NCBI GenBank assembly: GCA_947651825.1
Contig: CANTAQ010000001.1
Coordinates: 414,249-478,248, forward strand
Source: an uncultured Clostridium sp.
GTDB taxonomy: Bacteria; Bacillota; Clostridia; TANB77; CAG-508
DNA: 64,000 nucleotides
Direction: 5' to 3'
This document shows positions 10,180-50,886 of this stretch, in pieces. The notes under the pieces were generated by a model. That model saw only the letters and a program-made list of their open reading frames with translations. It was not told the origin of the DNA and did not search any database. The translations under genes and the position numbers were made by a program. Position 1 is the first letter of the stretch. Each line of letters starts with the position of its first letter.

Positions 10180-10650
10180 TTGAATAAATTAACTATTATT
10201 TTATGTATCATATTTTCTATTATATTTTTAACTGTTGGGATTTTTGTTGGTATACAAATTCAACAAAAAGATTCTATAGAAACATCTGAAGAATCTAATG
10301 ATAAGGCTGAAGAAAAGCAGTCTAGTAAAGAAGATTCTGATGATAAAGTTGAAGAAAAACAGTCTAGTAAAAAAGATTCTGTAAATGATTTAAATAAAGA
10401 AATGGAAAAGCTTGCTATAGGAACTTTTAATGCAAAATTTGAAGTATACATATCAGAAAGTGTTTCAGGAGCTAAAGTTCGTAGCTTAGTTTCTTCAGTT
10501 AAATCAAGTAATGCAATTGAACCAGAACACCAAATTACTATAGAACCTTCTGATATTTCTACAAAAATAGTTGCTAGTAAAAAATATCTTGTAAAAGCTG
10601 AATATGGTAATGATGGTTATATAAATAAAATTTCTATAACAGAAAAATAA
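10180..10650 (+). CDS. membrane-anchored hypothetical protein with acidic tandem repeat
   Basis: N-terminal TM segment. DKAEEKQSSKEDS/DDKVEEKQSSKKDS is encoded by a ~39-bp tandem repeat (10300-10380). Confidence 0.5.
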   Translation: MNKLTIILCIIFSIIFLTVGIFVGIQIQQKDSIETSEESNDKAEEKQSSKEDSDDKVEEKQSSKKDSVNDLNKEMEKLAIGTFNAKFEVYISESVSGAKVRSLVSSVKSSNAIEPEHQITIEPSDISTKIVASKKYLVKAEYGNDGYINKISITEK

Positions 10651-10721
10651 GAATAACACCCACTATCATAGTTAAATCCTGTGGAGAAATATCTGAGAAC
10701 ATTGTTGTTTTCACAAGAAAT

Positions 10722-10758
10722 AAAAGGTGGCTTGTTTGGCACCTTTTATTTCTTTGTT
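10722..10758 (+). terminator. intrinsic terminator
   Basis: aaaaggtg-gcttgtttgg-cacctttt followed by a T-run. Confidence 0.55.
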
Positions 10759-11066
10759 TTGTGTTTTCTTTATTTCAGAATTTAATACATATTTACTAAC
10801 AGCTGTATCAAATGCTATGTCAAAGGTTTCATCAAATATTGTTGTATTTATTGTTGTAAATTTTCCTACTCCTGCTGGCATAGTACTCTCAGGTATTAGT
10901 TCTCAGAAAGTTTCTTTATTATATTGTGTCATTCCTGTATCTGGTCCTGTTGTTGAATTTATATAAAATGTAACTAATCCATCAACTACCAAACCATCTG
11001 TTAATAATATATTACAAGCTTTCTTCACTTTCAACCATAAGAATTTGAACATTTTTTTATTTGTCT

Positions 11067-11080
11067 GTTGCTATGGCAAC
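11067..11080. promoter_or_regulatory. palindrome GTTGCTATGGCAAC + T-run (copy 3), 35 bp upstream of crp start
   Basis: Same motif as at 9948 and 9803. Confidence 0.35.
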
Positions 11081-11114
11081 TTTTTTGTGATATATTTATG
11101 TAGGTGACATAAAA

Positions 11115-11738
11115 ATGAAGAGAAATTTTGATGTTGATAAATTCGTAAATAAATTATCAACTAACTGTAAAATATGCGAATTTAAAGAATTTCAAGAAGA
11201 TGAAGTTATAACCACTTTCTTAATGAGAAGAAATCAATTTTGTATTTTATTAGAAGGTGAAGCTCAACTCATAACATATGATAAAGATGGAAACAAAAAG
11301 ATTTTATATTATTATAAAAAGAATGATATTTTTGGTGAAGCTCTATTTAAAATATATATGGATAGAGAATTATTTGTTCTCGCAAAAAAGACATGCAAAA
11401 TTTTAATATTTCCTTATGATACAGCAGAAAACTGCACAGAAGATTGTTTATATCATATTGATCTATTAAGAAATTTACCAGACCTTATTTTACACAGTAT
11501 TGCTGAACAAAATTTTAGAATGATTTTATTAACACATAAAAGTGTTAGAGATAAATTACTTTCATATTTTAATGTATTATCAGTTGAAAATGGGAAGAAA
11601 ACTTTTGAATTACCTTTTTCTTTAACAGATTTAGCTGACTATTTAATGATAGAAAGAACTGCTATGATGCGTGAATTAAAAAGGCTTAAAGATGAAAAAA
11701 TTATAAAGAAAATTAATACTCAAATAACATTGCTTTAA
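11115..11738 (+). CDS. Crp/Fnr family transcriptional regulator
   Basis: cNMP-binding-like N-terminus. C-terminal HTH LTDLADYLMIERTAMMRELKRL. Confidence 0.8.
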   Translation: MKRNFDVDKFVNKLSTNCKICEFKEFQEDEVITTFLMRRNQFCILLEGEAQLITYDKDGNKKILYYYKKNDIFGEALFKIYMDRELFVLAKKTCKILIFPYDTAENCTEDCLYHIDLLRNLPDLILHSIAEQNFRMILLTHKSVRDKLLSYFNVLSVENGKKTFELPFSLTDLADYLMIERTAMMRELKRLKDEKIIKKINTQITLL

Positions 11739-11741
11739 AAT

Positions 11742-11780
11742 AATAAATAGGAGTTTTCTAACTCCTATTTATTATTTTAA
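11742..11780. terminator. bidirectional intrinsic terminator
   Basis: aataaataggagtt-ttct-aactcctatttatt flanked by T-runs. Confidence 0.6.
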
Positions 11781-12320
11781 TTTCATTCCATCTTTGAATG
11801 CATTTCCTACTACATCTCCAAGTACTCTATAAGTGTTACTTACCATATCAAATGTAATTATTTCCATTTTATCTACATCTATTTTTCCATTTTCATCTAA
11901 ATATTTCTCATCTATTGAGACATTTACAACATTTCCTATTAGTATTTCATCTTCATATGATTCCACTGTGCATTCTAAAGTTAATGGATATTCTTCAATT
12001 GTTGGTGCATCTATAAATTTTGATTTGGTCACATGTACACCAGCTTTTTTTATCTTGTCTTCATTGTTGCCTGATGCTATTCCAAAGTAATCTGAAATTG
12101 TTACAGTTTCCTTTGTTGCAAAACTTACTGTAAATGCTTTTTTCAACACCAAGTTATCAGTTGTTTTATGTTTTGCTAATGCTATATATATTTGATTATA
12201 ATCAGTCAGTCCTCCCCATGCTGCATTCATGGCATTTGCATTCCCATCTTTATCATAAGTTCCAATTATTAAAACTGGAAGTGGTAAAAAACTTGTTTTC
12301 TTTCCTAAATCTTTTCTCAT
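11772..12320 (-). CDS. flavin reductase-like (FMN-binding split barrel) protein
   Basis: LPLPVLIIGTYDKDGNANAMNAAWGG motif. The start was taken at MRKDL, which is preceded by GGAGG. Confidence 0.7.
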   Translation of the reverse strand: MRKDLGKKTSFLPLPVLIIGTYDKDGNANAMNAAWGGLTDYNQIYIALAKHKTTDNLVLKKAFTVSFATKETVTISDYFGIASGNNEDKIKKAGVHVTKSKFIDAPTIEEYPLTLECTVESYEDEILIGNVVNVSIDEKYLDENGKIDVDKMEIITFDMVSNTYRVLGDVVGNAFKDGMKLK

Positions 12321-12498
12321 TATATTACCTCCAATCATTTAATCGTTATAATATCATAACATCTGCTATTTATCAATACTTTATGTATTATTCTATTCTG
12401 CAAAAATTTGACATTTTTTCAGTTTTATGTTAACATATATATGTAGCTCTAAGCAACTTTGCAGTGCACAAATGCACAGAAAGGTAAGGTAAAAAATC

Positions 12499-12978
12499 AT
12501 GTTTGAAAACTGGAATCGGCAGCGCAAGATCAAGGCTTATCGCGGCAACAACGTGACCCTCAAGAACTATGACTCGGCTTCCCGGACCGTTGACCTGACC
12601 GTCGGCGGCAGCTGGCCCGTTCGCCTGGGTTTCGACCTGGTGGACTTCGACCAGAAGCTCCAGCTGGCTTTCAGTGGTGATCTCATCACCGGCGACGGCG
12701 AGGCCCTGTCCCGAGTCATGAAGGTTCTGTGGAACAGTCCGCTTCCCGACGTTTTCAGCAAGAATGAGCAGCTGAGAAAGCAGCTGGGTAAGCCCAGCCC
12801 CGCTCCTCTTGAGGCTCCTGCTGAGGAAAACGCCGAGAACCCGCTCGAAGACGGTGCCAAGTTGCCGGTACAGCCGGAACCCGAGCCGCTCTACTTCCGC
12901 GACATGGCCAGTTGCGTCGCCGGCATGCCCAATCAGGTGGATGTCACCGTGAAGGCGTCCTATCGGATCGACAACTGA
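12499..12978 (+). CDS. hypothetical protein encoded by GC-rich (~60% GC) foreign-looking gene
   Basis: 159-aa ORF with RBS AAGGTAAGG. Codons are CTG, GGC, CGC, ACC and AAG-biased, unlike the rest of the window. No domain recognised. Confidence 0.55.
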   Translation: MFENWNRQRKIKAYRGNNVTLKNYDSASRTVDLTVGGSWPVRLGFDLVDFDQKLQLAFSGDLITGDGEALSRVMKVLWNSPLPDVFSKNEQLRKQLGKPSPAPLEAPAEENAENPLEDGAKLPVQPEPEPLYFRDMASCVAGMPNQVDVTVKASYRIDN

Positions 12979-13033
12979 TTAACCCTACCATGACCAGAAT
13001 ATGGTCAAACACCTTTTGAAAAGGAGGTGATAA

Positions 13034-13086
13034 AGGAGTGTGATAGTTTCAACTGAAACACTATCTCACTCCTTTATACTTTTATT
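13034..13086. terminator. bidirectional intrinsic terminator (19-bp stem)
   Basis: aggagtgtgatagtttc-aactg-aaacactatctcactcct followed by a T-rich tail. Confidence 0.6.
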
Positions 13087-13620
13087 TTATAATTCATATT
13101 CTTTTATTTGGCAATTTTCAGATCCATATTTTTGTAGCATTCCATCTTCTGGAATCTCATTAAAGTAAAAGTATATTCCCCTAGATACTCCTCCATGTGT
13201 TACCAATAATATATTTTTACCTTTATACTTTTCTTTGATTTCATCTAAAAAATCTTTAACTCTATTAAATAAATCTCTTATACTTTCTAGTCCTTCTACT
13301 TCTTTAGTTGAATTATAATTCCAATATTCTTTTTCATAAAATTCGCCTAATGGTTTACCTGTATAAATCCCTATGTCTCTTTCTTCCAGTCTTTCATCAA
13401 GAATCACTTGTATTTTATTTACATTTGCTATTTCGCAAGTATGCATTGTTCTTTTTAATGGCGAACATATGACTAAGTCTATATCTAAATTCTTAACCGT
13501 CTCAGCTGCCTTTTCAGCTTGTCTAATTCCTTCTTCATTAATGTCCTCATCAAATTTGCCATTAAATTTTTTCTCTAAATTAAGCTTCGTCTGACCATGT
13601 CTTAATACATATATTTTCAT
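13087..13620 (-). CDS. histidine phosphatase (phosphoglycerate mutase) family protein
   Basis: The RHG motif near the N-terminus is in the sequence MKIYVLRHGQT. Confidence 0.8.
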   Translation of the reverse strand: MKIYVLRHGQTKLNLEKKFNGKFDEDINEEGIRQAEKAAETVKNLDIDLVICSPLKRTMHTCEIANVNKIQVILDERLEERDIGIYTGKPLGEFYEKEYWNYNSTKEVEGLESIRDLFNRVKDFLDEIKEKYKGKNILLVTHGGVSRGIYFYFNEIPEDGMLQKYGSENCQIKEYEL

Positions 13621-13646
13621 TTTGTGTTTCCTTTCTATTTTATAGT

Positions 13647-14003
13647 TTATTTAATTTTATTATATATATTATTGCAAGCCTTACATGTAATTTCCAAATT
13701 ATAATTCATTACTTTTTTATCTAATATTGTAATTAAAGGTTCTTTATCTTTTTCACAGCAAAACCTATTTTTTATGGTTATTAATTCACCCTCATAAGGC
13801 TTTCCTTCTTTGCTGTCTTCAAAGCCTATTGATACATATCCTTCGCTTCCACAATTGCACTTATATTTTAAATCTATTTTATCATATGTTGAATAGCATA
13901 AATATCCTATGTTTTCATTACATTTATCACAATACATCCATCCTCCATAATTTGTTGCTAACCTTGTATTTATTAATTCTTTATTTTTTATTGTTCTTGC
14001 CAT
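13647..14003 (-). CDS. Cys-rich hypothetical protein (zinc-ribbon-like)
   Basis: Motifs CDKC, CNCG, CC, CKAC. Confidence 0.45.
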   Translation of the reverse strand: MARTIKNKELINTRLATNYGGWMYCDKCNENIGYLCYSTYDKIDLKYKCNCGSEGYVSIGFEDSKEGKPYEGELITIKNRFCCEKDKEPLITILDKKVMNYNLEITCKACNNIYNKIK

Positions 14004-14022
14004 TTTTCATTTCTCCTTATTT

Positions 14023-15510
14023 TTATTTGTTTTCTAATTTTATAATTTTTGTTGCTACATTTTCTATGAATTTTTCATCATGTTCTACAAATATCATAGT
14101 TGGTTCATATTTTAATATTGCTTCTTCTATTTGTATTCTTGTTAATATATCTATATAATTTAATGGTTCATCCCAAATATATAAGTGTGCTGATTCTGAA
14201 ATGCTTTTTGCTATTAGTATTTTTTTCTTTTGTCCTTCACTCATTTCTTGTATATTTTTATCAAATTCTATATTAGAAACTCCCATCTTTGAAAGCATTG
14301 CTTTGAATATACTTTCATCAATTTTTTGACTTCTTACAAATTCTTTTAAACTTCCTCTTAAGTTATCAGTGCTTTGTGCAACATATGATATTTTCAAATC
14401 ATTTGCTACTTTTATTTCTCCATTATACTGTATTTCATTTCCTATAATTAGTTTTAAAATACTAGATTTTCCTATTCCGTTTTTTCCCACTATTGCAACT
14501 CTATCTCCATTTTTTATATCAAAAGACTCTTTTTTAAATATTGGATTATTATCATATTTTATTTGAAAATCTTTAGCTACAATCAATGGATTTTTTTGAC
14601 TTACTAAAGGAACCATTTTCAAAGAATCATTTCTATCTATATTTTTAAGTAAATTTGATTTTTCTTCTATTGACTTTTCTATTCTCTTTTCTATCACTTT
14701 CGATTTTTTCATCATTTTAGCTGATTGATGTCCTACATAGCCCCTATCTATACTTGACTCTGAATTCGTAGTATTATATTTTGATTTTTCTATCTTATCA
14801 GACCAATTTGCTGCATTTCTTGAAGATATATTAAGTCGTTTAATATCTTTTTGTAATTTTTCATTTTGCATTAGTTCAAAATTATCTTGTCTTTCTTTGT
14901 TTTCTTGCCATGAAGAAAAATTACCTTTCTGTATTTCTATATTTGTATTGTTTATGGAAATAATATGATTTACTACTTTATCTAAAAAATTCCTGTCATG
15001 TGATACTAATATAAATCCCTTTTTCTTTTTTAAATACTCAACTAAATTATCTCTTGTTTCTATATCTAAATGGTTAGTAGGTTCATCAATAAGTAAAAAA
15101 TTATTTCCTTTTAGAAATAAGCTTATTAATAATAGTTTTATTTGTTCCCCACCACTTAATAAATTAAAGTTTCTATAAAGAATTTCAGAATCAGTATTTA
15201 ACAGATTTAATTCTTTAATAATTTCCCAATCTTCACTATTTGGAGTTATTTCTTGAACAATTTCTATTGCCATTCTCTCCTTGTTTTTTACTTCAAAAGG
15301 AAAATAGTCAAACTCTACGCTCCTAGAAATTGTACCTTGATATTGATACTTACCTAATAAAAGTTTTAAAAATGTTGTTTTACCTTTTCCATTTCTACCA
15401 ATTAGTCCAAGTTTCCAGTCTGTATCAATATTAAATGATACATCTTCAAAAACATTATTTAGTAGCCCATCATATCCAAAACTTAAATTATTTACACTAA
15501 TCTGTGACAT
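14023..15510 (-). CDS. ABC-F family ATPase (possible ARE-type ribosomal protection protein)
   Basis: Two ABC domains (GRNGKGKTT, GKNGIGKSS) with an interdomain linker. The start was set at MSQISV, which follows AGGAGGG. Confidence 0.8.
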   Translation of the reverse strand: MSQISVNNLSFGYDGLLNNVFEDVSFNIDTDWKLGLIGRNGKGKTTFLKLLLGKYQYQGTISRSVEFDYFPFEVKNKERMAIEIVQEITPNSEDWEIIKELNLLNTDSEILYRNFNLLSGGEQIKLLLISLFLKGNNFLLIDEPTNHLDIETRDNLVEYLKKKKGFILVSHDRNFLDKVVNHIISINNTNIEIQKGNFSSWQENKERQDNFELMQNEKLQKDIKRLNISSRNAANWSDKIEKSKYNTTNSESSIDRGYVGHQSAKMMKKSKVIEKRIEKSIEEKSNLLKNIDRNDSLKMVPLVSQKNPLIVAKDFQIKYDNNPIFKKESFDIKNGDRVAIVGKNGIGKSSILKLIIGNEIQYNGEIKVANDLKISYVAQSTDNLRGSLKEFVRSQKIDESIFKAMLSKMGVSNIEFDKNIQEMSEGQKKKILIAKSISESAHLYIWDEPLNYIDILTRIQIEEAILKYEPTMIFVEHDEKFIENVATKIIKLENK

Positions 15511-15606
15511 TTTCCCTCCTTCAAAATTACTTTTTCTTATATAATAGCATAACAGACAGATAATTTTCAACCATTATCTGTCTGTTAATTTAACATTACT
15601 ATAATA

Positions 15607-15795
15607 CTATTCTAATCTCAATGCCTGTTTTGGACAAAAATTAGAACATTTCCCACATCTTATACATTTTTCATAATCTATTTTGGGTGCTTCAAATTTT
15701 TCTTGTGATAGTGCACCTACTGGACACACTTTTACTGCTGGACACTTATGATTTTGTGGACATTTATCCACTATAATATTTAACTTCTTTTCCAT
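15607..15795 (-). CDS. 4Fe-4S ferredoxin-type small protein
   Basis: CxxCxxC-type cluster Cys motifs. Confidence 0.55.
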   Translation of the reverse strand: MEKKLNIIVDKCPQNHKCPAVKVCPVGALSQEKFEAPKIDYEKCIRCGKCSNFCPKQALRLE

Positions 15796-15813
15796 TCACA
15801 AAACACTCCTTAA

Positions 15814-16011
15814 TTAATTTGTTTTATAATACAACATACAGTGACAATATCCCTCAAAGTTTGGATCATTTATTTGCTCTCTAAACTCTTTACACATACA
15901 TTTATTTTCTTTAATTCGTTCTCTTCTGCATGGACAATATCCTCCATTCTTCTTTAATCCCTCCTGTATTGCTTTTACCACTTCTTCATTTTCATTTAAT
16001 TTTACTGCCAT
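15814..16011 (-). CDS. ferredoxin-thioredoxin reductase catalytic-subunit-like protein
   Basis: CPC...CMC...CHC motif pattern. Confidence 0.45.
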   Translation of the reverse strand: MAVKLNENEEVVKAIQEGLKKNGGYCPCRRERIKENKCMCKEFREQINDPNFEGYCHCMLYYKTN

Positions 16012-16065
16012 ATTTTACTTTCTCCTTATATATATTTTTTTAATACCTTAATATAGGATTTCTAT

Positions 16066-18279
16066 TCACACTATATTTTTTATACGTTTTAATCTCAGTG
16101 CATTTAATATCACTGTTATACTACTAAATACCATTGCTAAACTTGCAAGCATTGGATTTATAGTTATTCCTATTGGCTCTAGTATTCCTATTGCAACTGG
16201 TATCATTAATAAATTATAGAAAAATGCCCAGAATAAATTTTGTTTTATATTTATTACTGTTTTTCTACTGATGTTTATTAAATTCAAAATACTACCTAAA
16301 TCGTTCTTCGTTAATATCACATCAGATGAATCCATTGCTATATCTGTTCCACTATTTACACTTATACCAATATTTGCTGTTGCTAAAGCTGGACTATCAT
16401 TTATACCATCTCCACACATCATTACATATTTGCCTTGTTTTTTTAGGTCTTTTACTACTTTTGTTTTTTCACTTGGCATTACATTTGAAATTACTTCTGT
16501 TATTCTTATTTCCTTTGCAATTTTCTCAGCTGTCTTTTTATTGTCTCCTGTTAGCATAATAGTTTCTATTTTATTTTCATTTAACTTCTTTATTACTTCT
16601 ACTGCATTCTCTCTTACTATATCGTTTACTCCTATTAATGCCAGTATTCCATTTAAACTTGCCACATAAACAATACTATTTCCTTTTTCTGTAAGTTCTT
16701 TTTCTTCTTTAATATAATAATTATCAATATCATATTTTACTAAAATTTTTGAATTTCCAACTATTAATTTCTGTTCTTCGATTTCTCCTATAATCCCTAG
16801 TCCTGTTATATTTTCAAATTCTTTTACATCTAGTTTTTCTAAATTATTTTCTTCCATATAGCTTTCAAAAGCTTTTCCTATTGGATGTGTCCCTTTTCTC
16901 TCAATACTTCCCACTAGCTGTAACAATTCTTTTTCTTCCATATCACTATAATTTTTTACTTCTGAAATTCTTAATTTTCCATATGTTAGTGTTCCTGTTT
17001 TATCAAAAACTATAGTATTTACTTTTTGTGCATTTTCCAAAATTTCGCTCTTCTTTACTAAAATCCCATTACTTGCACATAGTCCTTCACTTACAACTAT
17101 TGCAAGCGGTGTTGCTAAACCTAAACTGCAAGGACATGCTACCACAAGTATTGTAACAAAAGTAACAATTGCATTTCCAACTCCAAAGCCTAATAGTAAA
17201 TATACTATAAATGTGATAATTGAAATGAGAATAACTATTGGTACAAAATATCCCGATATTTTATCTGCTATTTTTGCTATTGGAGCTTTTGTGTTATTTG
17301 CTTCTATAACCAGTCTTACTATCTCTGATACTGTTGATTCTTTCCCTATCCTCTCTGCTTTATATTTTATAAACCCATCATAATTTAGGCTGCCCGCAAT
17401 TACTTTTTCTCCTATTGTTCTAGTTGCTGGTTTACTTTCACCTGTTATAAATGATTCATCAAAATGTGCTTTTCCTTCTATTATCTCTCCATCAACTGCA
17501 ACTTTTTCTCCAGGTTTTACTATAACTATATTTCCTTTTTTTATTTCATCTAGTGTAACTTTCTTTTCAATCCCGTTTATTTCAATAGTTGCCTGATTTG
17601 GTGTTATTTCTACTAATTTTTGTATTGCTTCTTTTGTCTTATCCTTACTAATTCCATCTAGATATCTACCTAGTTTTATAAAATATATTACAATAGCCGA
17701 AGATTCAAAATATAAATCCATTGTGTAATCATAGTTGCCATTTAATATTCTATACATTCCATATAAACTATATAGGAAACTACTAATTACTCCTATTGCA
17801 ACTAATGTATCCATATTCGGTATTCTATGAATTAAATTTTTATATCCATTTTTTAAAATATCAAATCCATATACTAAAAACAATATTGTTAATATTAATA
17901 AAGTAAATGTGTATGCTATTGGATTATGATGTGGATTAAGGTTTTCTGGTACTGGCAATTTCATCATATGTCCCATTGAAATGTACATTAAAATTATTGC
18001 AAGTATTGTAAATATTACAAACTTTATTTTTTCTGTTTTACTTTGTTTTTGTATCTTGAATTCTTTGAATACACCCAAACTCTTAAATCCTGCTTGTTTA
18101 ACATATTTCTCCAATTTTTCTTGATTTAGTATTTTTTCGTCATAATCTATACTTGCATTTGCCATTACAAGATTTACTGATGCATTTATAACACCATTTT
18201 GTTTATTCAAATATTTTTCTAATCCATTTGAACAAGCACTGCAAGTCATTCCTTCTATAGATAAAATAATCTTCTTCAT
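16066..18279 (-). CDS. copA: copper-translocating P-type ATPase
   Basis: Motifs GMTCSACS (HMA), CPC, DKTGT, GDGINDSPAL. Confidence 0.9.
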   Translation of the reverse strand: MKKIILSIEGMTCSACSNGLEKYLNKQNGVINASVNLVMANASIDYDEKILNQEKLEKYVKQAGFKSLGVFKEFKIQKQSKTEKIKFVIFTILAIILMYISMGHMMKLPVPENLNPHHNPIAYTFTLLILTILFLVYGFDILKNGYKNLIHRIPNMDTLVAIGVISSFLYSLYGMYRILNGNYDYTMDLYFESSAIVIYFIKLGRYLDGISKDKTKEAIQKLVEITPNQATIEINGIEKKVTLDEIKKGNIVIVKPGEKVAVDGEIIEGKAHFDESFITGESKPATRTIGEKVIAGSLNYDGFIKYKAERIGKESTVSEIVRLVIEANNTKAPIAKIADKISGYFVPIVILISIITFIVYLLLGFGVGNAIVTFVTILVVACPCSLGLATPLAIVVSEGLCASNGILVKKSEILENAQKVNTIVFDKTGTLTYGKLRISEVKNYSDMEEKELLQLVGSIERKGTHPIGKAFESYMEENNLEKLDVKEFENITGLGIIGEIEEQKLIVGNSKILVKYDIDNYYIKEEKELTEKGNSIVYVASLNGILALIGVNDIVRENAVEVIKKLNENKIETIMLTGDNKKTAEKIAKEIRITEVISNVMPSEKTKVVKDLKKQGKYVMMCGDGINDSPALATANIGISVNSGTDIAMDSSDVILTKNDLGSILNLINISRKTVINIKQNLFWAFFYNLLMIPVAIGILEPIGITINPMLASLAMVFSSITVILNALRLKRIKNIV

Positions 18280-45451: not shown

Positions 45452-45665
45452 CTTTACCTCTTTCTTAATCATCCCTGTCATATTATATCATATTTTGTCA
45501 ACTTATAGTATACTTTATCTTATTTTCATAATAAAAAATAAATGGTTCATTTGTTATATTTTTCTTTAAACAATATTCATTATTATCTTTAAATATGCAT
45601 GATTAGCTAACGCTATTATTTTCTTATTAAAAATAAGCATGTTTTTTAGCATGCTTATTTGCTTC

Positions 45666-48600
45666 TTACCTTTCTATTTCTTCTCTAGTCATTTCTATCT
45701 GCCTTAAACATTCTTCAATTTCTTTTGCTTGTTTCAAAGTATATTGTCTTTTTAAATCTCGTATTCCTAATATTCTTAAGAATCTTCCTCCCCAACCTTT
45801 TCTTAAGTCCATTTTATCAGCTTTACTACTTCCAACACCCCTATGAGTTGTAGTATAAATATCATCACTTTCTTTGGCAGCTTTTCTTAATCTAGAAATA
45901 TTAATTCTTTCATTACCATTTCTATCTCTTTGTATTACTTCATCTTCTATTTGTATGTATTCCTCTAATGGCATTGCATAAGTCCTTTTTCCATATGCTG
46001 GATAATTTCTTCCAAACTTCTTATCAAACATTTTCTCGATTACCACTCTATCTAAGTTATCAAAATAAACAATTAAATAACCATCTACATATCTTTTATC
46101 ATAATTTTCATATAATAAAGAAAATAATCTCCATCTTTGAAATGGGTCTGTTACTGTTTTCCTTGTTGTTACTATTCTTTCTTTTCCTATTTCCTTTTTC
46201 TCTCCATTAGATGTACCTTCATCATGCATATCTCCATTAGATGTACCTTCATCATGCATATCTCCATTATTAGTATAAATATAATTCATAAGACTATCTC
46301 TTAAATCTTTTTCTGAAACTTGATCATAAGTAGAATAAACTAAAATAATCTTTTCTATATCACTCATATCAGGTTTTGATAGAATTTCTCTTATATCCCA
46401 TACTTCTCCATCTTCATTGTTTTTAAAGATTTGTTTTGTATCACTTGGTCTTAACTTACCATCTTTTACCATAGAATTTAAAAGTATCATACCACCATAT
46501 TTAATAAGTTCGTTTAATCCAACTATGTTTTCCGCATATAATCGTGTTACTTCTTCCTTTGAAAGTGTTCCATCTAAAAGTTGTATAACTCTTTGTCTTG
46601 ACTCTGCTATTCGTTCTTCTGATAATTTCTTTAATATAAGTTCACGATAAGCCAAAGTATATCTTTTAAATTGTTTTTCATTTTTATCTTGTAATAATAT
46701 AACTATTCCTTCTTCAGTTATTTCATCTTCTACCTTTTGAGCATTATCTCCTAATAGTCTAATACTTTCAAAGCCTATTTTTCCTTGTAAATACATATCA
46801 AATATCTGTTTTTCATCTCGTAATCCCTTTTCATAAGCTTGCTTAATTATATTTCCATGAATTTTACTTTGTGCATTTTCAAGTACATAAGGAATATCGT
46901 CTTCTCTTACTACTCCATCCCTGGCTATTTGATTTAATACACCAATTTCTCCATATTCAACAGCACTTGATAAAGCAACAACACCATCTTTATATAATTG
47001 TGTTACAGTATCGTCGCTAAAGTCATCCTCTAGTCCTAGAATAATATCGTCATCACTTCTTTGTCCATTTAATTGGTATAATTGTACATTTTTTTCATAT
47101 TCTTGATATTCATCATTTTTGTCATTGTATTTTTTCCTATATAAATTTAATATTTTTTCTGTACTAGTTAGTCCAGCTATTCTTTCAGCTCCATATCTTT
47201 CTTTTAAAATTCCTAAAATAGAAGGATTTGTAATGTAACTTTGATAAAGTCTATCATTAGTAATGCTTCCTCTATTCTCCAAATATAATAGATTTTCTTC
47301 ATCTTGGTTATTTAATGCTAATACAAATGCTCCATTAATTTCATCATCTGATAATAAATCATATACATTTCCTAGTTCTTGCAATGCAACTCTTGCTTCT
47401 CCTATTTTTTTGCCATCTAATTTAGTAGATTTTATATCTGCTAATATCGCTTCTTCATTTAAATTCCTTGTTAGAATTATTTTAGACAAATCATCTTTTG
47501 ACAAATATTCTCTTAAATACATATATACTATATTTGTTTCTGATACCTCTGGAGAACATAAAACATTTACTAGTGTAGCTCCAGAAATCACACCTTTGTC
47601 TGCCAAAAATCTTAAATTATTATCATTTACTTTCGAAAGTTGTATTCCTTCTTGTATAGATAAATATCGATAATATTCTCCCAAATCACTTAACAAAACT
47701 TGTCCTGAAGTAATTTCTTCATCAGAATGATATCTACCATCTTTTGTAATTTTGCATAAATCTTTTTTTACATCTTCAGCTGTATACGTTGCTTTTATAG
47801 TGAAATCACCCATATTATTGCCATCATCTCTTGAAAAAAGTTTAACTTTTGATCTTTCGTCTACTAAATTTTTAATAGCACTTAGAAATTCTCTTGCTTC
47901 TAATACAAGTTTTTGCATTTCTTCTGGTGTTCTTTCTTTTTCTGAATCTAATATTGCCTCTATTTTTCTATATGCAATCGTTAATAAAAATTTATCATCT
48001 AATATTCCATAATGGTAATCCTGCACTCCTTGCATACAGGTTCTTTTTATTTCATCTCCAAATATTAAATCATAGTTTTTTTCTCTGCGTTTCGAATTAT
48101 TCATATAATCATTTGCCTCATCTAATGACATATTAAATTCGTTCATCAATGTTTTTCTTTGCATTGTTAGCATAAAAGCGTCTACAAAGCTATAATTTTT
48201 AGAATAAATTAATGTCAAATCTGAAAAATCAAAATCTTTATAACTGCTTAAAAGCATTTGTTTGACTGCAGCTAATTTTGCATTTTCTGTTTTTTCTTCT
48301 CTGCTTTTATTCCCATATACTAATACATCTGAAGAAATTGTACAAATAGTTGGTTTTGTAAAAGTACTATCTATATCTGCTCTATATAAAATAATATTGT
48401 CTCCGCGATTTATATATCGTTTTGCATATTCCATTATTTTTTGTCTTTTTCTTCTATTTTGTTCTTCTAATGTTTGTGAATTATTTATTCTAGGAAAAGT
48501 ACTAATTGTAACTCTGTCCATTTTCCAAACACAAGTTAATATTAATTTTTTAATATCAATTCTTCCTGCCATACTTATACAAAAGTCCTTCATTGATTGA

Positions 48601-48722
48601 TTACTTTTTATTTCTTGACTTAACTCGTTTTTATCTGTTTCTATTGCTTCTATATCATACTCATCCACATAATCTATTTCGCAATCTTCAAATAACTTTT
48701 TTATTTCTATAACTGTTGCCAT
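45666..48722 (-). CDS. large hypothetical protein (1018 aa), internal repeats, no recognised catalytic domain
   Basis: Long ORF with normal codon usage. Contains an in-frame 30-bp tandem duplication (NGDMHDEGTS x2). Confidence 0.6.
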   Translation of the reverse strand: MATVIEIKKLFEDCEIDYVDEYDIEAIETDKNELSQEIKSNQSMKDFCISMAGRIDIKKLILTCVWKMDRVTISTFPRINNSQTLEEQNRRKRQKIMEYAKRYINRGDNIILYRADIDSTFTKPTICTISSDVLVYGNKSREEKTENAKLAAVKQMLLSSYKDFDFSDLTLIYSKNYSFVDAFMLTMQRKTLMNEFNMSLDEANDYMNNSKRREKNYDLIFGDEIKRTCMQGVQDYHYGILDDKFLLTIAYRKIEAILDSEKERTPEEMQKLVLEAREFLSAIKNLVDERSKVKLFSRDDGNNMGDFTIKATYTAEDVKKDLCKITKDGRYHSDEEITSGQVLLSDLGEYYRYLSIQEGIQLSKVNDNNLRFLADKGVISGATLVNVLCSPEVSETNIVYMYLREYLSKDDLSKIILTRNLNEEAILADIKSTKLDGKKIGEARVALQELGNVYDLLSDDEINGAFVLALNNQDEENLLYLENRGSITNDRLYQSYITNPSILGILKERYGAERIAGLTSTEKILNLYRKKYNDKNDEYQEYEKNVQLYQLNGQRSDDDIILGLEDDFSDDTVTQLYKDGVVALSSAVEYGEIGVLNQIARDGVVREDDIPYVLENAQSKIHGNIIKQAYEKGLRDEKQIFDMYLQGKIGFESIRLLGDNAQKVEDEITEEGIVILLQDKNEKQFKRYTLAYRELILKKLSEERIAESRQRVIQLLDGTLSKEEVTRLYAENIVGLNELIKYGGMILLNSMVKDGKLRPSDTKQIFKNNEDGEVWDIREILSKPDMSDIEKIILVYSTYDQVSEKDLRDSLMNYIYTNNGDMHDEGTSNGDMHDEGTSNGEKKEIGKERIVTTRKTVTDPFQRWRLFSLLYENYDKRYVDGYLIVYFDNLDRVVIEKMFDKKFGRNYPAYGKRTYAMPLEEYIQIEDEVIQRDRNGNERINISRLRKAAKESDDIYTTTHRGVGSSKADKMDLRKGWGGRFLRILGIRDLKRQYTLKQAKEIEECLRQIEMTREEIER
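46201..46269. repeat. exact 30-bp tandem duplication (2.3 copies) inside CDS
   Basis: tctccattagatgtaccttcatcatgcata repeated twice, then a partial third copy. Confidence 0.9.
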
Positions 48723-48734
48723 ATTATTCCCTTT

Positions 48735-49523
48735 CTAATTTAAATAATCTTCTTTTATCTTATCTTTTTCCATTTGTTTATATGGGTTCTCATTAATATA
48801 AACATATTTTCCGTCTATTTGTTTTCTTAATTCTTCTTTTGAAATATTTTGTTTCGTTAAAATAACAACTATATCTTTTTCACCATACTCATTTATTTGT
48901 TCGATTACTTCTTCTACATTTTCACATTCTTCATATCTTTCCATAAGCATAAAATTATAATCTGCTATTTCACAAATCATTTCTTCAATTTCTTGAAATT
49001 CTTCAGAATCACAATAAATTTCTATATTTCCACTAGGATTATAAGATAATTGTTTTAAATTTCTTTTCTTCAACAATTTATACATATCTCTTTCTCCCAT
49101 TACAATTATCTTATCAAATTTTAATAGATTGTCCTTTTCATTTATTGTATCTCTTACTAAGTTAATTGTAATATCTACATTCTCTTCGTTTAAAATCTCT
49201 TGTATTATTTTTACAATTCCACTATTTAATCCATACATAGTTTCTTGTATATCAATTGTAATGTTTATTTCCTTTTGGATTGCTTCTATAGCTAATAACA
49301 ATGTAAGATATGGATTTCCTGAATGGATTACTAATATATTGTTTCCTTTTACTTCACTTTCTTTTTTTCTTTGTCCTTTCAACTTTATTATTTCAATTAG
49401 TTTTGAAGTCTTTATTTGAAAAGAATAATATTCGTTATCTATCTTATTTAATTTTTCTAATATTCTTTTATTTCTTTCTATACTTTTTTCTAATTTTTTC
49501 CATATTTCTTCTTGACTATCCAT
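48735..49523 (-). CDS. hypothetical protein (262 aa), co-operonic with the 1018-aa protein
   Basis: 13-bp gap to the downstream gene on the same strand. Confidence 0.55.
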   Translation of the reverse strand: MDSQEEIWKKLEKSIERNKRILEKLNKIDNEYYSFQIKTSKLIEIIKLKGQRKKESEVKGNNILVIHSGNPYLTLLLAIEAIQKEINITIDIQETMYGLNSGIVKIIQEILNEENVDITINLVRDTINEKDNLLKFDKIIVMGERDMYKLLKKRNLKQLSYNPSGNIEIYCDSEEFQEIEEMICEIADYNFMLMERYEECENVEEVIEQINEYGEKDIVVILTKQNISKEELRKQIDGKYVYINENPYKQMEKDKIKEDYLN

Positions 49524-49787
49524 ATCTTACCTGCATAATATATTTAACACTTTAAATATATTACACTCCTTTCAATATTTTATAACTCTTTTATATTATA
49601 TCACAAACTTAACATAATTTCCATAATTAAAAAACATCATGCATTGATGATGTTTTTTCCTCTATATTTTACTCCTGACTATTTATATTTTAGTTTTTGC
49701 TCTCCATATATTTTGTGTTGAATAATTTATATAATTATGCTATAATTCGTTTGGGCTACTTAAATTCTTTAAGGAGGTCCTTATTTT

Positions 49788-50339
49788 ATGTTTAATTTCT
49801 TTAAACTTTTCTCTATTTCTGGTATTTTTCTCATTATTTTTTCATTTTTTGTTCTTTGTTTTACTATACGTTTTTTTGATATTTCTACATCTGCTCCTGA
49901 TATTAATTATCCTATATATGCTTCTGGATTTGTATGGCCTACTCCTAATTACACTCAAATCACATCTCCTTTTGGTTATAGACAATCTCCTTTCACTGGA
50001 GCAATAGCTTATCATTCTGGTATAGATATTGGAGCTCCACAAGGTACTAATGTTCTTTCAGCATTTTCTGGTACCGTTACATATATTGGTTTTAGTGGAG
50101 CTAATGGTTTTACTGTTCGTATTTCTAATGGAGATTTTGAAGCAACTTATTCACATCTTTCTCCAAATTTCATTGTTTATGTAGGTCAAATGGTTTTTAT
50201 TGGTGATGTAATTGCAATTATTGGTCCTAAAAATGTTTATGGTATTCCTAATAATCCTTATAAAGATTCCAATGGAAATCCCACTAATGGCTCTACTACA
50301 GGTCCTCATTTACATTTCTCATTAAAAAAGGGCCGGTAA
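49788..50339 (+). CDS. M23 family metallopeptidase (LytM domain) with signal anchor
   Basis: HSGIDIGAPQGT...HLHF zinc-ligand motifs. Confidence 0.8.
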   Translation: MFNFFKLFSISGIFLIIFSFFVLCFTIRFFDISTSAPDINYPIYASGFVWPTPNYTQITSPFGYRQSPFTGAIAYHSGIDIGAPQGTNVLSAFSGTVTYIGFSGANGFTVRISNGDFEATYSHLSPNFIVYVGQMVFIGDVIAIIGPKNVYGIPNNPYKDSNGNPTNGSTTGPHLHFSLKKGR

Positions 50340-50367
50340 ATACACCAACCCTATTGATTATTTTTAA

Positions 50368-50886
50368 TTAATTTTCTTCAGCTAATCTATACAAAGCATC
50401 TTGCATCATAATATTATTTAATGATGCTCCATATCCTATAAAATCTCTTAAGCTTCCATCTTCCAATATATACATTTCAATTTCATCACTTATACTTTCT
50501 GTTGTATACTCTCCACCTTTGCTGTGGTCTATATATGTCATGCTTGTATATTTACCTACAATTTTCCCTCCATCAATCTGATAAGTACCTTCTAAAGTCA
50601 AACCAGCAAACCCATCAAATACTATTATTTTTCCATCTTCTATTTCCAAATAAAGAGTTCCTACTAACATTTCATCATCTTCTGTCTCTGGAACATATTC
50701 ATATGTTCCATTCTTTAACTCAATCTTTTTTGGGTCTTTTTGATCTGAATCTGTTTTTCCTCCTTGTATTTTATTTATAACGTTATCTTTGCTTTTTTCT
50801 TCAGTTTTGCCATCACATCCTGTTAATGTAATTAATATAGAAAACATTACTGCTACAACCATTATTATTAATCCTGTTTTTTTCAT
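50368..50886 (-). CDS. lipoprotein, hypothetical
   Basis: Lipobox LTGC. Confidence 0.55.
   Translation of the reverse strand: MKKTGLIIMVVAVMFSILITLTGCDGKTEEKSKDNVINKIQGGKTDSDQKDPKKIELKNGTYEYVPETEDDEMLVGTLYLEIEDGKIIVFDGFAGLTLEGTYQIDGGKIVGKYTSMTYIDHSKGGEYTTESISDEIEMYILEDGSLRDFIGYGASLNNIMMQDALYRLAEEN

Follow-up and report, generated by a model that had tools for sequence, protein, structure and literature searches.

The operon at 45666..49523 of the window (a stretch of 64,000 nucleotides from contig CANTAQ010000001.1 of an uncultured Clostridium sp.) joins a remnant of a core biosynthetic enzyme to a giant orphan protein. We found that its first gene (48735..49523, minus strand) encodes a truncated and, by all indications, catalytically dead relative of ProA, gamma-glutamyl phosphate reductase (GPR), of 262 aa with an aldehyde dehydrogenase (ALDH) fold, and that its second gene (45666..48722, minus strand) encodes a protein of 1018 aa that contains an array of helical hairpin repeats. 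The two genes strictly co-occur. The best explanation, which in our judgement has an even chance of being right, is that their products assemble in the cytoplasm into an obligate complex, made up of a ProA-derived pseudoenzyme and a giant hairpin-repeat protein whose C-terminal domain is new. A first-pass annotation, made by a model from the letters alone, had described the pair as an uncharacterised, accessory-like operon. Both open reading frames (ORFs) are present with every peptide that it quoted, and its interpretation was borne out in part: the pair is uncharacterised, lineage-restricted and evolves faster than its housekeeping neighbours.

The relationship to ProA was found with both structure and sequence. 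The AlphaFold model of the small protein, built from seven homologs, has a predicted local distance difference test (pLDDT) score of 81.7, and Foldseek comparison of this model with the PDB placed gamma-glutamyl phosphate reductases on top (1o20, 8zok and 4ghk; E about 1e-7), with other aldehyde dehydrogenases below them. A sequence-only profile of eleven divergent small-family members matches 1o20 (E = 9.2e-8) and 8zok (E = 2.6e-5). In structure and sequence alike, the closest relative of the small protein is ProA (EC 1.2.1.41; the GPR domain of pyrroline-5-carboxylate synthase, P5CS), with which it shares an ALDH-type fold and detectable sequence homology. This ancestry was overlooked in the first-pass annotation, which saw no housekeeping homology in either gene and held that a housekeeping family or a conserved syntenic position would speak against an accessory role; both are now found in part, the small protein being homologous to the housekeeping family ProA and the pair being syntenic in four related lineages. 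Of the structural modelling that it proposed, the half concerning the small protein led to ProA, and the half concerning the large protein gave noise.

The alignment of the small protein to E. coli ProA is collinear but gapped: residues 63-190 correspond to ProA 115-246 and residues 191-245 to ProA 313-368, and the match spans the helices at the N-terminus, the Rossmann domain for the cofactor and, of the catalytic domain, a single beta-alpha-beta unit. Hence, nothing in the small protein corresponds to ProA residues 247-312. The absent stretch includes RPSTC(253)NTVETLLV, with the E. coli catalytic Cys253, whose T. maritima equivalent is the catalytic Cys255 (PMC4271523). In addition, where ProA has its 49-residue C-terminal tail (369-417, with NASTRF...HARGP), the small protein has only 17 residues, unrelated to it. 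Glu383 of the ProA tail is near the catalytic cysteine in the T. maritima structure (PMC4271523). Because both the segment with the catalytic cysteine and the C-terminal active-site tail are lost, the small protein is predicted to be unable to reduce gamma-glutamyl phosphate. It is ~150 residues shorter than the full-length two-domain enzyme (~415 aa), lacks the catalytic cysteine (Cys253 in the E. coli motif RPSTCN) and has a giant orphan protein as its partner instead. With NCBIfam TIGR00407, its score is 17 bits, far under the cutoff of 317.45. Hence the small protein is, as far as its sequence and predicted fold tell, a shortened ProA descendant that has lost its catalytic parts.

What is conserved in the small family lies elsewhere. 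No Cys or His is invariant in the family alignment; the residues that are invariant are G69, P71, Y72, N100, Y148, N244 and N246. The best-conserved motifs, GNPY and NxNP, fall at the positions of RPN and NAS, the two best-conserved motifs that line the ProA active site, with a Tyr at the position of the RPN Asn; by eye, the position of the PRGG motif is not conserved. From the placement of GNPY and NxNP, the small protein possibly retains a binding pocket. No proB was seen adjoining the small gene. Like the small protein, ALDH16A1-type pseudoenzymes belong to the ALDH superfamily and are without catalytic residues, and vertebrate ALDH16 is an ALDH-fold pseudoenzyme proposed to act via protein-protein interaction (PMC12041015). 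Unlike the small protein, ALDH16, which is found in both vertebrates and bacteria, is full-length with an additional domain at the C-terminus, is not ProA-derived and has no described obligate giant partner. In the literature, we found no description of a ProA-like pseudoenzyme with such a giant partner.

The strongest result is the constancy of the pairing. A word-indexed search with the large protein returned only seven relatives (85-99% identity, all 1008 aa), and the same type of search with a 55-sequence alignment gave nothing beyond these close homologs. An exhaustive phmmer scan of 1.84 billion representatives yielded 92 clusters, defined at 50% identity, with E<=1e-3; for 71 of these, E<=1e-10. 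Members are mostly 760-1040 aa and match chiefly over the C-terminal ~400 residues. All those sampled come from metagenomes or metagenome-assembled genomes (MAGs), and the family seems confined to low-GC Clostridia-like genomes. Both genes are conserved down to 25-30% identity.

Among the loci of these relatives (numbered with the prefix L), a ProA-like gene adjoins the large gene in L003, L004, L005, L006/L010, L007, L008, L009, L013 and L015, and also in the close relatives L001, L002 and L028; the single exception, L014, is taken up below. A metagenome scan that started from the small protein gave 12 loci. In L016-L019, the small gene is followed by a large gene of the A3 family (A3 being the 55-sequence full-length alignment of the large family). 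In L020/L021, L025 and L026, helical-repeat proteins of 583-822 aa directly precede the small gene, the copy in L025 being cut to 278 aa by the contig end. In the remaining four, the contig end cuts off the relevant side. The large neighbours of this distant branch share the repeat signature and the order of C-terminal motifs, and hhalign against the large family gives a weak 12.5% probability. Adjacency therefore holds in about 14 divergent A3-family lineages and three distant-branch lineages, about 17 altogether. The small gene comes first in the window clade, L003, L006/L010, L009 and L016-L019, and the large gene comes first in L004, L005, L007, L008, L013 and L015. Since both gene orders occur, we argue that selection acts on adjacency itself.

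Three further arrangements were seen at these loci. In P0008, an NCBI-sourced sequence of 99% identity, the small protein, a Gln (CAG for TAG), KGNN and the start of the large protein form an in-frame fusion. At L020 (66-6704) and L025 (1-2644), a gene for a radical SAM/SPASM enzyme, 61% identical between the two loci, follows the ProA-like gene. In L020, moreover, the large repeat protein is encoded twice in tandem, by paralogs with 35% identity.

The large protein has four parts. In its A3 alignment, a moderately conserved N-terminal region of ~360 residues is followed by the repeats, then by a variable linker and finally by a C-terminal domain (~170 residues) that is well conserved. In the window, all on the minus strand, residues 1-360 are encoded at 47643..48722, the array of helical hairpin repeats (residues ~361-815, delimited by hhalign self-matches and the occupancy profile) at 46278..47642, and the C-terminal domain (residues 846-1018) at 45669..46187. 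The internal repeats are real, as hhalign between segments of the large protein reaches 97.7% probability (E=1.5e-12). The first-pass annotation was right to see repeats and gave them as ~35 aa; the unit is a helical hairpin of ~22-25 aa (~24 aa) with the motif L..L(Y)..G.(I/V)...., and two such units often combine into ~45-50 aa. Judged by A3 occupancy, the window clade has an extra ~170 residues of repeats at residues ~370-540, which we read as a clade-specific repeat insertion.

In the C-terminal domain, the invariant residues are D859, G881, E896, H960 and W977, with D859 invariant in A4 (a 29-sequence C-terminal alignment) and 95% conserved in A3. The domain is basic in the window protein (pI 9.5), and family-wide it is the least acidic part (median pI 7.9 versus 4.8-5.3 elsewhere). 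PDB profile searches with the full-length (A3) and C-terminal (A4) profiles gave no sequence match. Scans of Pfam, NCBIfam, PADLOC and PHROG gave no meaningful match for either window protein, and Walker A, HExxH, DPPY/NPPY and LPXTG motifs are found in neither, which agrees with the earlier statement that no catalytic motif could be recognised.

The repeat signature, written as L..L(Y)..G.I(S/T)..E over ~24 aa, resembles both SHOCT (PF09851) and UPF0175 (PF03683), with matches in few relatives and none in the window protein. The bit scores shown are all below gathering (13.9 versus 27.9 for UPF0175, over ~20 residues; 23.3 versus 27), and the best UPF0175 match has E=3.6e-5, for which no score is shown. 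Both families are single short domains, whereas the large protein is an array of nine or more units in ~1000 aa. As the matches are short, sub-threshold and in few relatives, we rejected UPF0175 and SHOCT as the identity of the repeats.

Between the repeats and the C-terminal domain, the window gene carries a 30-bp perfect tandem duplication (46201..46269, minus strand; 2.3 copies, 100% match; residues ~816-845), which encodes GDMHDEGTSN twice. The linker that holds it has an occupancy of 0.5 and low conservation, and none of the seven close homologs (each 1008 aa) has the duplication. Hence, the duplication reported in the first-pass annotation is real, and the ongoing variation read from it is better explained as private slippage than as programmed variation.

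Both proteins are acidic and hydrophilic (pI 5.1 for the large, 4.9 for the small). Neither has a signal peptide, transmembrane segment or LPXTG, and the maximum 19-residue Kyte-Doolittle hydropathy is 1.24 for the large and 1.33 for the small protein. Since it has no hydrophobic segment and a pI of 5.1, the large protein is considered cytoplasmic and not an adhesin.

The operon has its own control elements. A promoter-like site, TGGAAA-17-TATAAT with a TG extension (extended -10: TGATATAAT), lies at 49595..49623 (minus strand), ~70 nt upstream of the small gene, and was top-ranked in the promoter scan. In the genome-derived relatives L001 and L002, this promoter, the ~70-nt leader and the intergenic spacer are almost invariant. 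An analogous TTGAAA-17-TGnTAAAAT is found upstream of the first gene of the pair, whichever gene that is, in most lineages (e.g. L005, L007, L008 and L013). By their pattern, the operon promoters look like sigma-A type in many lineages, and transcription is probably constitutive.

The leader contains a perfect 12-bp inverted repeat, TAATATATTTAA-AGTG-TTAAATATATTA (49533..49566, minus strand), which extends to 15 pairs and is kept in L001 and L002. The 76-nt leader folds with -12.8 kcal/mol (z = -4.0), and a scan of it with Rfam found no riboswitch or known RNA. The palindrome sits between an unused strong Shine-Dalgarno-like AAAGGAG and the real ribosome-binding site (RBS) of the small gene. 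It could act as an RNA hairpin or as DNA, serving as an operator or a translational control element.

The two ORFs are separated by a spacer of 12 nt, AAAGGGAATAAT (48723..48734, minus strand), not 13 bp as given in the first-pass annotation; the spacer holds the RBS of the large gene. The ORFs are in the same frame after the TAG stop, and this arrangement (TAG and four codons between the ORFs; 48723-48737) is found in the window, L001 and L002. Downstream of the stop of the large gene, an intrinsic-terminator-like hairpin, AAATAAGCATG-(8-nt loop)-CATGCTTATTT, precedes a T-run (45624..45660, minus strand). It folds with -11.6 kcal/mol (z = -3.9), and in L001 and L002 its stem is kept while its loop varies; a consensus terminator scanner did not pick it up. 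Hence, with its own promoter, leader hairpin and terminator, the gene pair is one separate transcription unit. The native composition seen earlier was also found here: GC is 0.26-0.29, GC content at third codon positions (GC3) is 0.13-0.14 and the effective number of codons (ENC) is 31-33, values covered by the range of the remaining window genes.

Relative to L001, L002 and L028, the ratio of nonsynonymous to synonymous divergence (dN/dS) is 0.2-0.4 for both operon genes and 0.03-0.12 for housekeeping neighbours. By this measure, both genes are real and under purifying selection. Residues 1-120 of the large protein are near-neutral (dN/dS 0.8-2.3), and its most constrained parts are residues 546-700 and the C-terminal domain (0.13-0.23; C-terminal domain 0.16-0.23).

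Synonymous divergence (dS) of the operon is 3-4 times below that of every flanking syntenic gene in the window clade (45482-49700 compared). Against L001, dS is 0.08 for the pair and 0.29-0.80 for the flanks; against L002, 0.17-0.20 and 0.64-0.97; against L028, 0.21-0.24 and 0.59-1.05. Between L001 and L002 themselves, the pair has a dS of 0.20 and the flanks 0.73-1.08. The step is sharp and coincides with the operon boundaries, and fourfold sites have the same deficit (Fisher p = 1e-6 and 2e-11). We rejected codon bias and amino-acid composition as the cause, since fourfold sites are equally depleted and ENC and GC3 are typical. We also rejected low dS as a family-wide property, since the independent clade L006/L010 has no deficit. 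The low dS may reflect either recent spread of the cassette among related species or constraint on synonymous sites.

The surroundings of the operon are chromosomal and non-mobile. The low-GC window (about 27%) is Clostridium-like chromosomal DNA, and the neighbours include a BcrAD/BadFG-DUF2229 activase-like giant, a CmpB-type membrane protein, FemAB, an M23 peptidase, a lipoprotein, a glucan phosphorylase, a Fumble/BadF-type kinase and a galactokinase. Other loci have scpA/ytfJ/recG, spmAB, parAB, polA, ksgA/PBP or mutS/nrdD/miaB as neighbours, and four related lineages have kept the pair in synteny. With tblastn, the pair had no match in 72,556 plasmids and 50,697 phages, and pattern scans of IMG/VR viral contigs with three alignments confirmed no relative. 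Hence the pair does not look like cargo of a phage, plasmid or integrative and conjugative element. Mobile-type neighbours occur only at L007 (a type IV secretion system (T4SS) cluster), L006 (PDDEXK_2) and L014 (an insertion sequence (IS) fragment). At L007, the pair itself is just after parA/parB/DUF4446, and directly downstream of it (10344-16376) is a T4SS-like cluster of four TrbC/T4SS-pilin genes, PrgI, a TraC-like gene and a VirB4-like ATPase.

Three other features of the window were recorded. Directly upstream of the operon (49788-50886), the M23 peptidase gene and a 172-aa lipoprotein-like gene are by far the most divergent of the syntenic block, with 44-81% amino-acid identity to relatives versus 86-98% for other neighbours. 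At 55634-57708, a gene for a 580-aa Big_7/filamin-repeat protein (55912-57654, plus strand) with opposite skew is a strain-variable insertion, as L001 has only ~96 bp there; its product is a probable surface protein. At 12499-12978 (plus strand), a 159-aa ORF has, by eye, a GC content far above ~27% (44% in the surrounding 1-kb bin, with AT-rich flanks). It had no match in Pfam or in tblastn against plasmids and phages, no RNA family or tRNA was found there, and it looks like a recent foreign insertion.

In the proposed complex, the small subunit, in which the Rossmann domain for cofactor binding and a stub of the catalytic domain are kept, would serve as a non-catalytic binding or adaptor subunit, possibly a ligand sensor. 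The large subunit would be an acidic scaffold of SHOCT/UPF0175-like helical hairpins, and its relatively basic C-terminal domain of ~170 aa probably carries a partner-, nucleic-acid- or target-binding activity. Several points weigh against this proposal. The physical complex and the adaptor or sensor role are inferred, and the evidence for the complex is indirect. L014 has a large gene with no visible partner, on a 3-kb contig with an IS fragment alongside. P0008 could be a natural in-frame fusion or a sequencing error, as it is one short contig. The structure of the large protein predicted from eight close homologs is an unusable model (pLDDT 44.5), with which Foldseek returned only noise (best E=0.058), so no fold was inferred. 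The five invariant C-terminal residues (D, G, E, H and W) could form a catalytic site, which would make the large protein an enzyme and not a scaffold. Finally, a conflict system would be just as compatible with the dN/dS of 0.2-0.4, the near-neutral N-terminus and a patchy distribution confined to MAGs.

A conflict system (anti-phage, toxin-antitoxin-like or effector-immunity), with the giant protein as sensor or effector and the dead ProA as regulator, is in our view an unlikely alternative. The small-plus-very-large architecture suits it, as do the patchy distribution in uncultured lineages only, a context that varies between clades, and fast protein evolution with a near-neutral N-terminus. 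Moreover, the repeats bear a weak resemblance to UPF0175, a family of antitoxins, and the operon-wide low dS could reflect recent lateral spread. The first-pass annotation had named defence and effector-immunity among the likely classes and had looked to co-occurrence with defence islands, and neither idea found support. PADLOC (PADLOC-DB v2) gave no match to the window proteins and, among 55 large-family members, one weak match to PDC-M44A (E=0.002) that is not credible, so the pair matches no known anti-phage model. There is no nuclease, ATPase, protease or NADase motif, and the neighbours are ordinary chromosomal genes (mutS, recG, parAB, polA, ksgA etc.) and not defence islands. No plasmid, phage or viral-contig relative was found, the pair is retained in synteny in the four related lineages, and the UPF0175 matches are under the Pfam threshold. 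A type II toxin-antitoxin pair would combine a UPF0175 antitoxin of ~80 aa with a PIN-like toxin, whereas these proteins are 262 and 1018 aa with no PIN domain.

We consider it rather improbable that the genes are a sporulation or spore-structure pair of spore-forming Clostridia, for example with the large protein as a morphogenetic scaffold. Spore_YtfJ (L003), SpmA/B-type Gate proteins and GerM (L005), SipL (L023) and the M23 peptidase (window) are nearby, and the seeming restriction to low-GC Clostridia-like genomes fits. However, these neighbours vary by locus and are common in such genomes, and no annotated homolog was found in any named spore-former. The promoters are sigma-A-type; a simple promoter-pattern scan gave only two loose sigma-G/F-pattern matches, in the window and in L008, at positions that are not conserved, and nothing for sigma-E or sigma-K.

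A more ambitious version of the complex has only a slim chance. Here, the pair would be a two-component cytoplasmic machine of uncultured gut Clostridia in which a pseudoenzyme with a ligand pocket (e.g. for a proline-pathway intermediate or NADPH) gates the giant protein, whose C-terminal domain would be a new enzymatic or nucleic-acid-binding fold; the cassette would have recently swept related species, which would explain the dS deficit.

Very unlikely, to our mind, is a substrate/modifier or maturation module, with the large protein as the target of a post-translational modification and the ProA-like protein as the subunit for recognition or with a chaperone role. The radical SAM/SPASM genes directly after the ProA-like gene in L020 and L025 and the tandem large genes in L020 fit such a module, but there is no radical SAM gene in the window or in any A3-family locus, and the homology of the distant-branch large proteins to the A3 family (hhalign probability 12.5%) is no more than suggestive.

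The idea of a surface adhesin with an accessory protein (a class that the first-pass annotation had listed) or of non-functional ORFs, for which a large repetitive protein and a strain-private in-frame tandem duplication might be cited, is barely credible and is refuted as far as sequence analysis can do so, as neither acidic, hydrophilic protein has the signal peptide plus LPXTG, cell-wall-binding or transmembrane anchor of Gram-positive surface adhesins and both are under purifying selection with conservation to 25-30% identity.

What is novel is the system as a whole, which has no known relative, and not a demonstrated new mechanism. Its practical importance is moderate until a phenotype is found, as many MAG gene pairs are equally uncharacterised. 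If the obligate complex of the ProA-derived pseudoenzyme and the giant hairpin-repeat protein is real, it would be an example from bacteria in which a core biosynthetic enzyme, ProA, lost its catalysis and was recruited as the obligate partner of a giant orphan. It would also add two new protein families and a new C-terminal domain, and the function of bacterial pseudoenzymes would have a clean test case.

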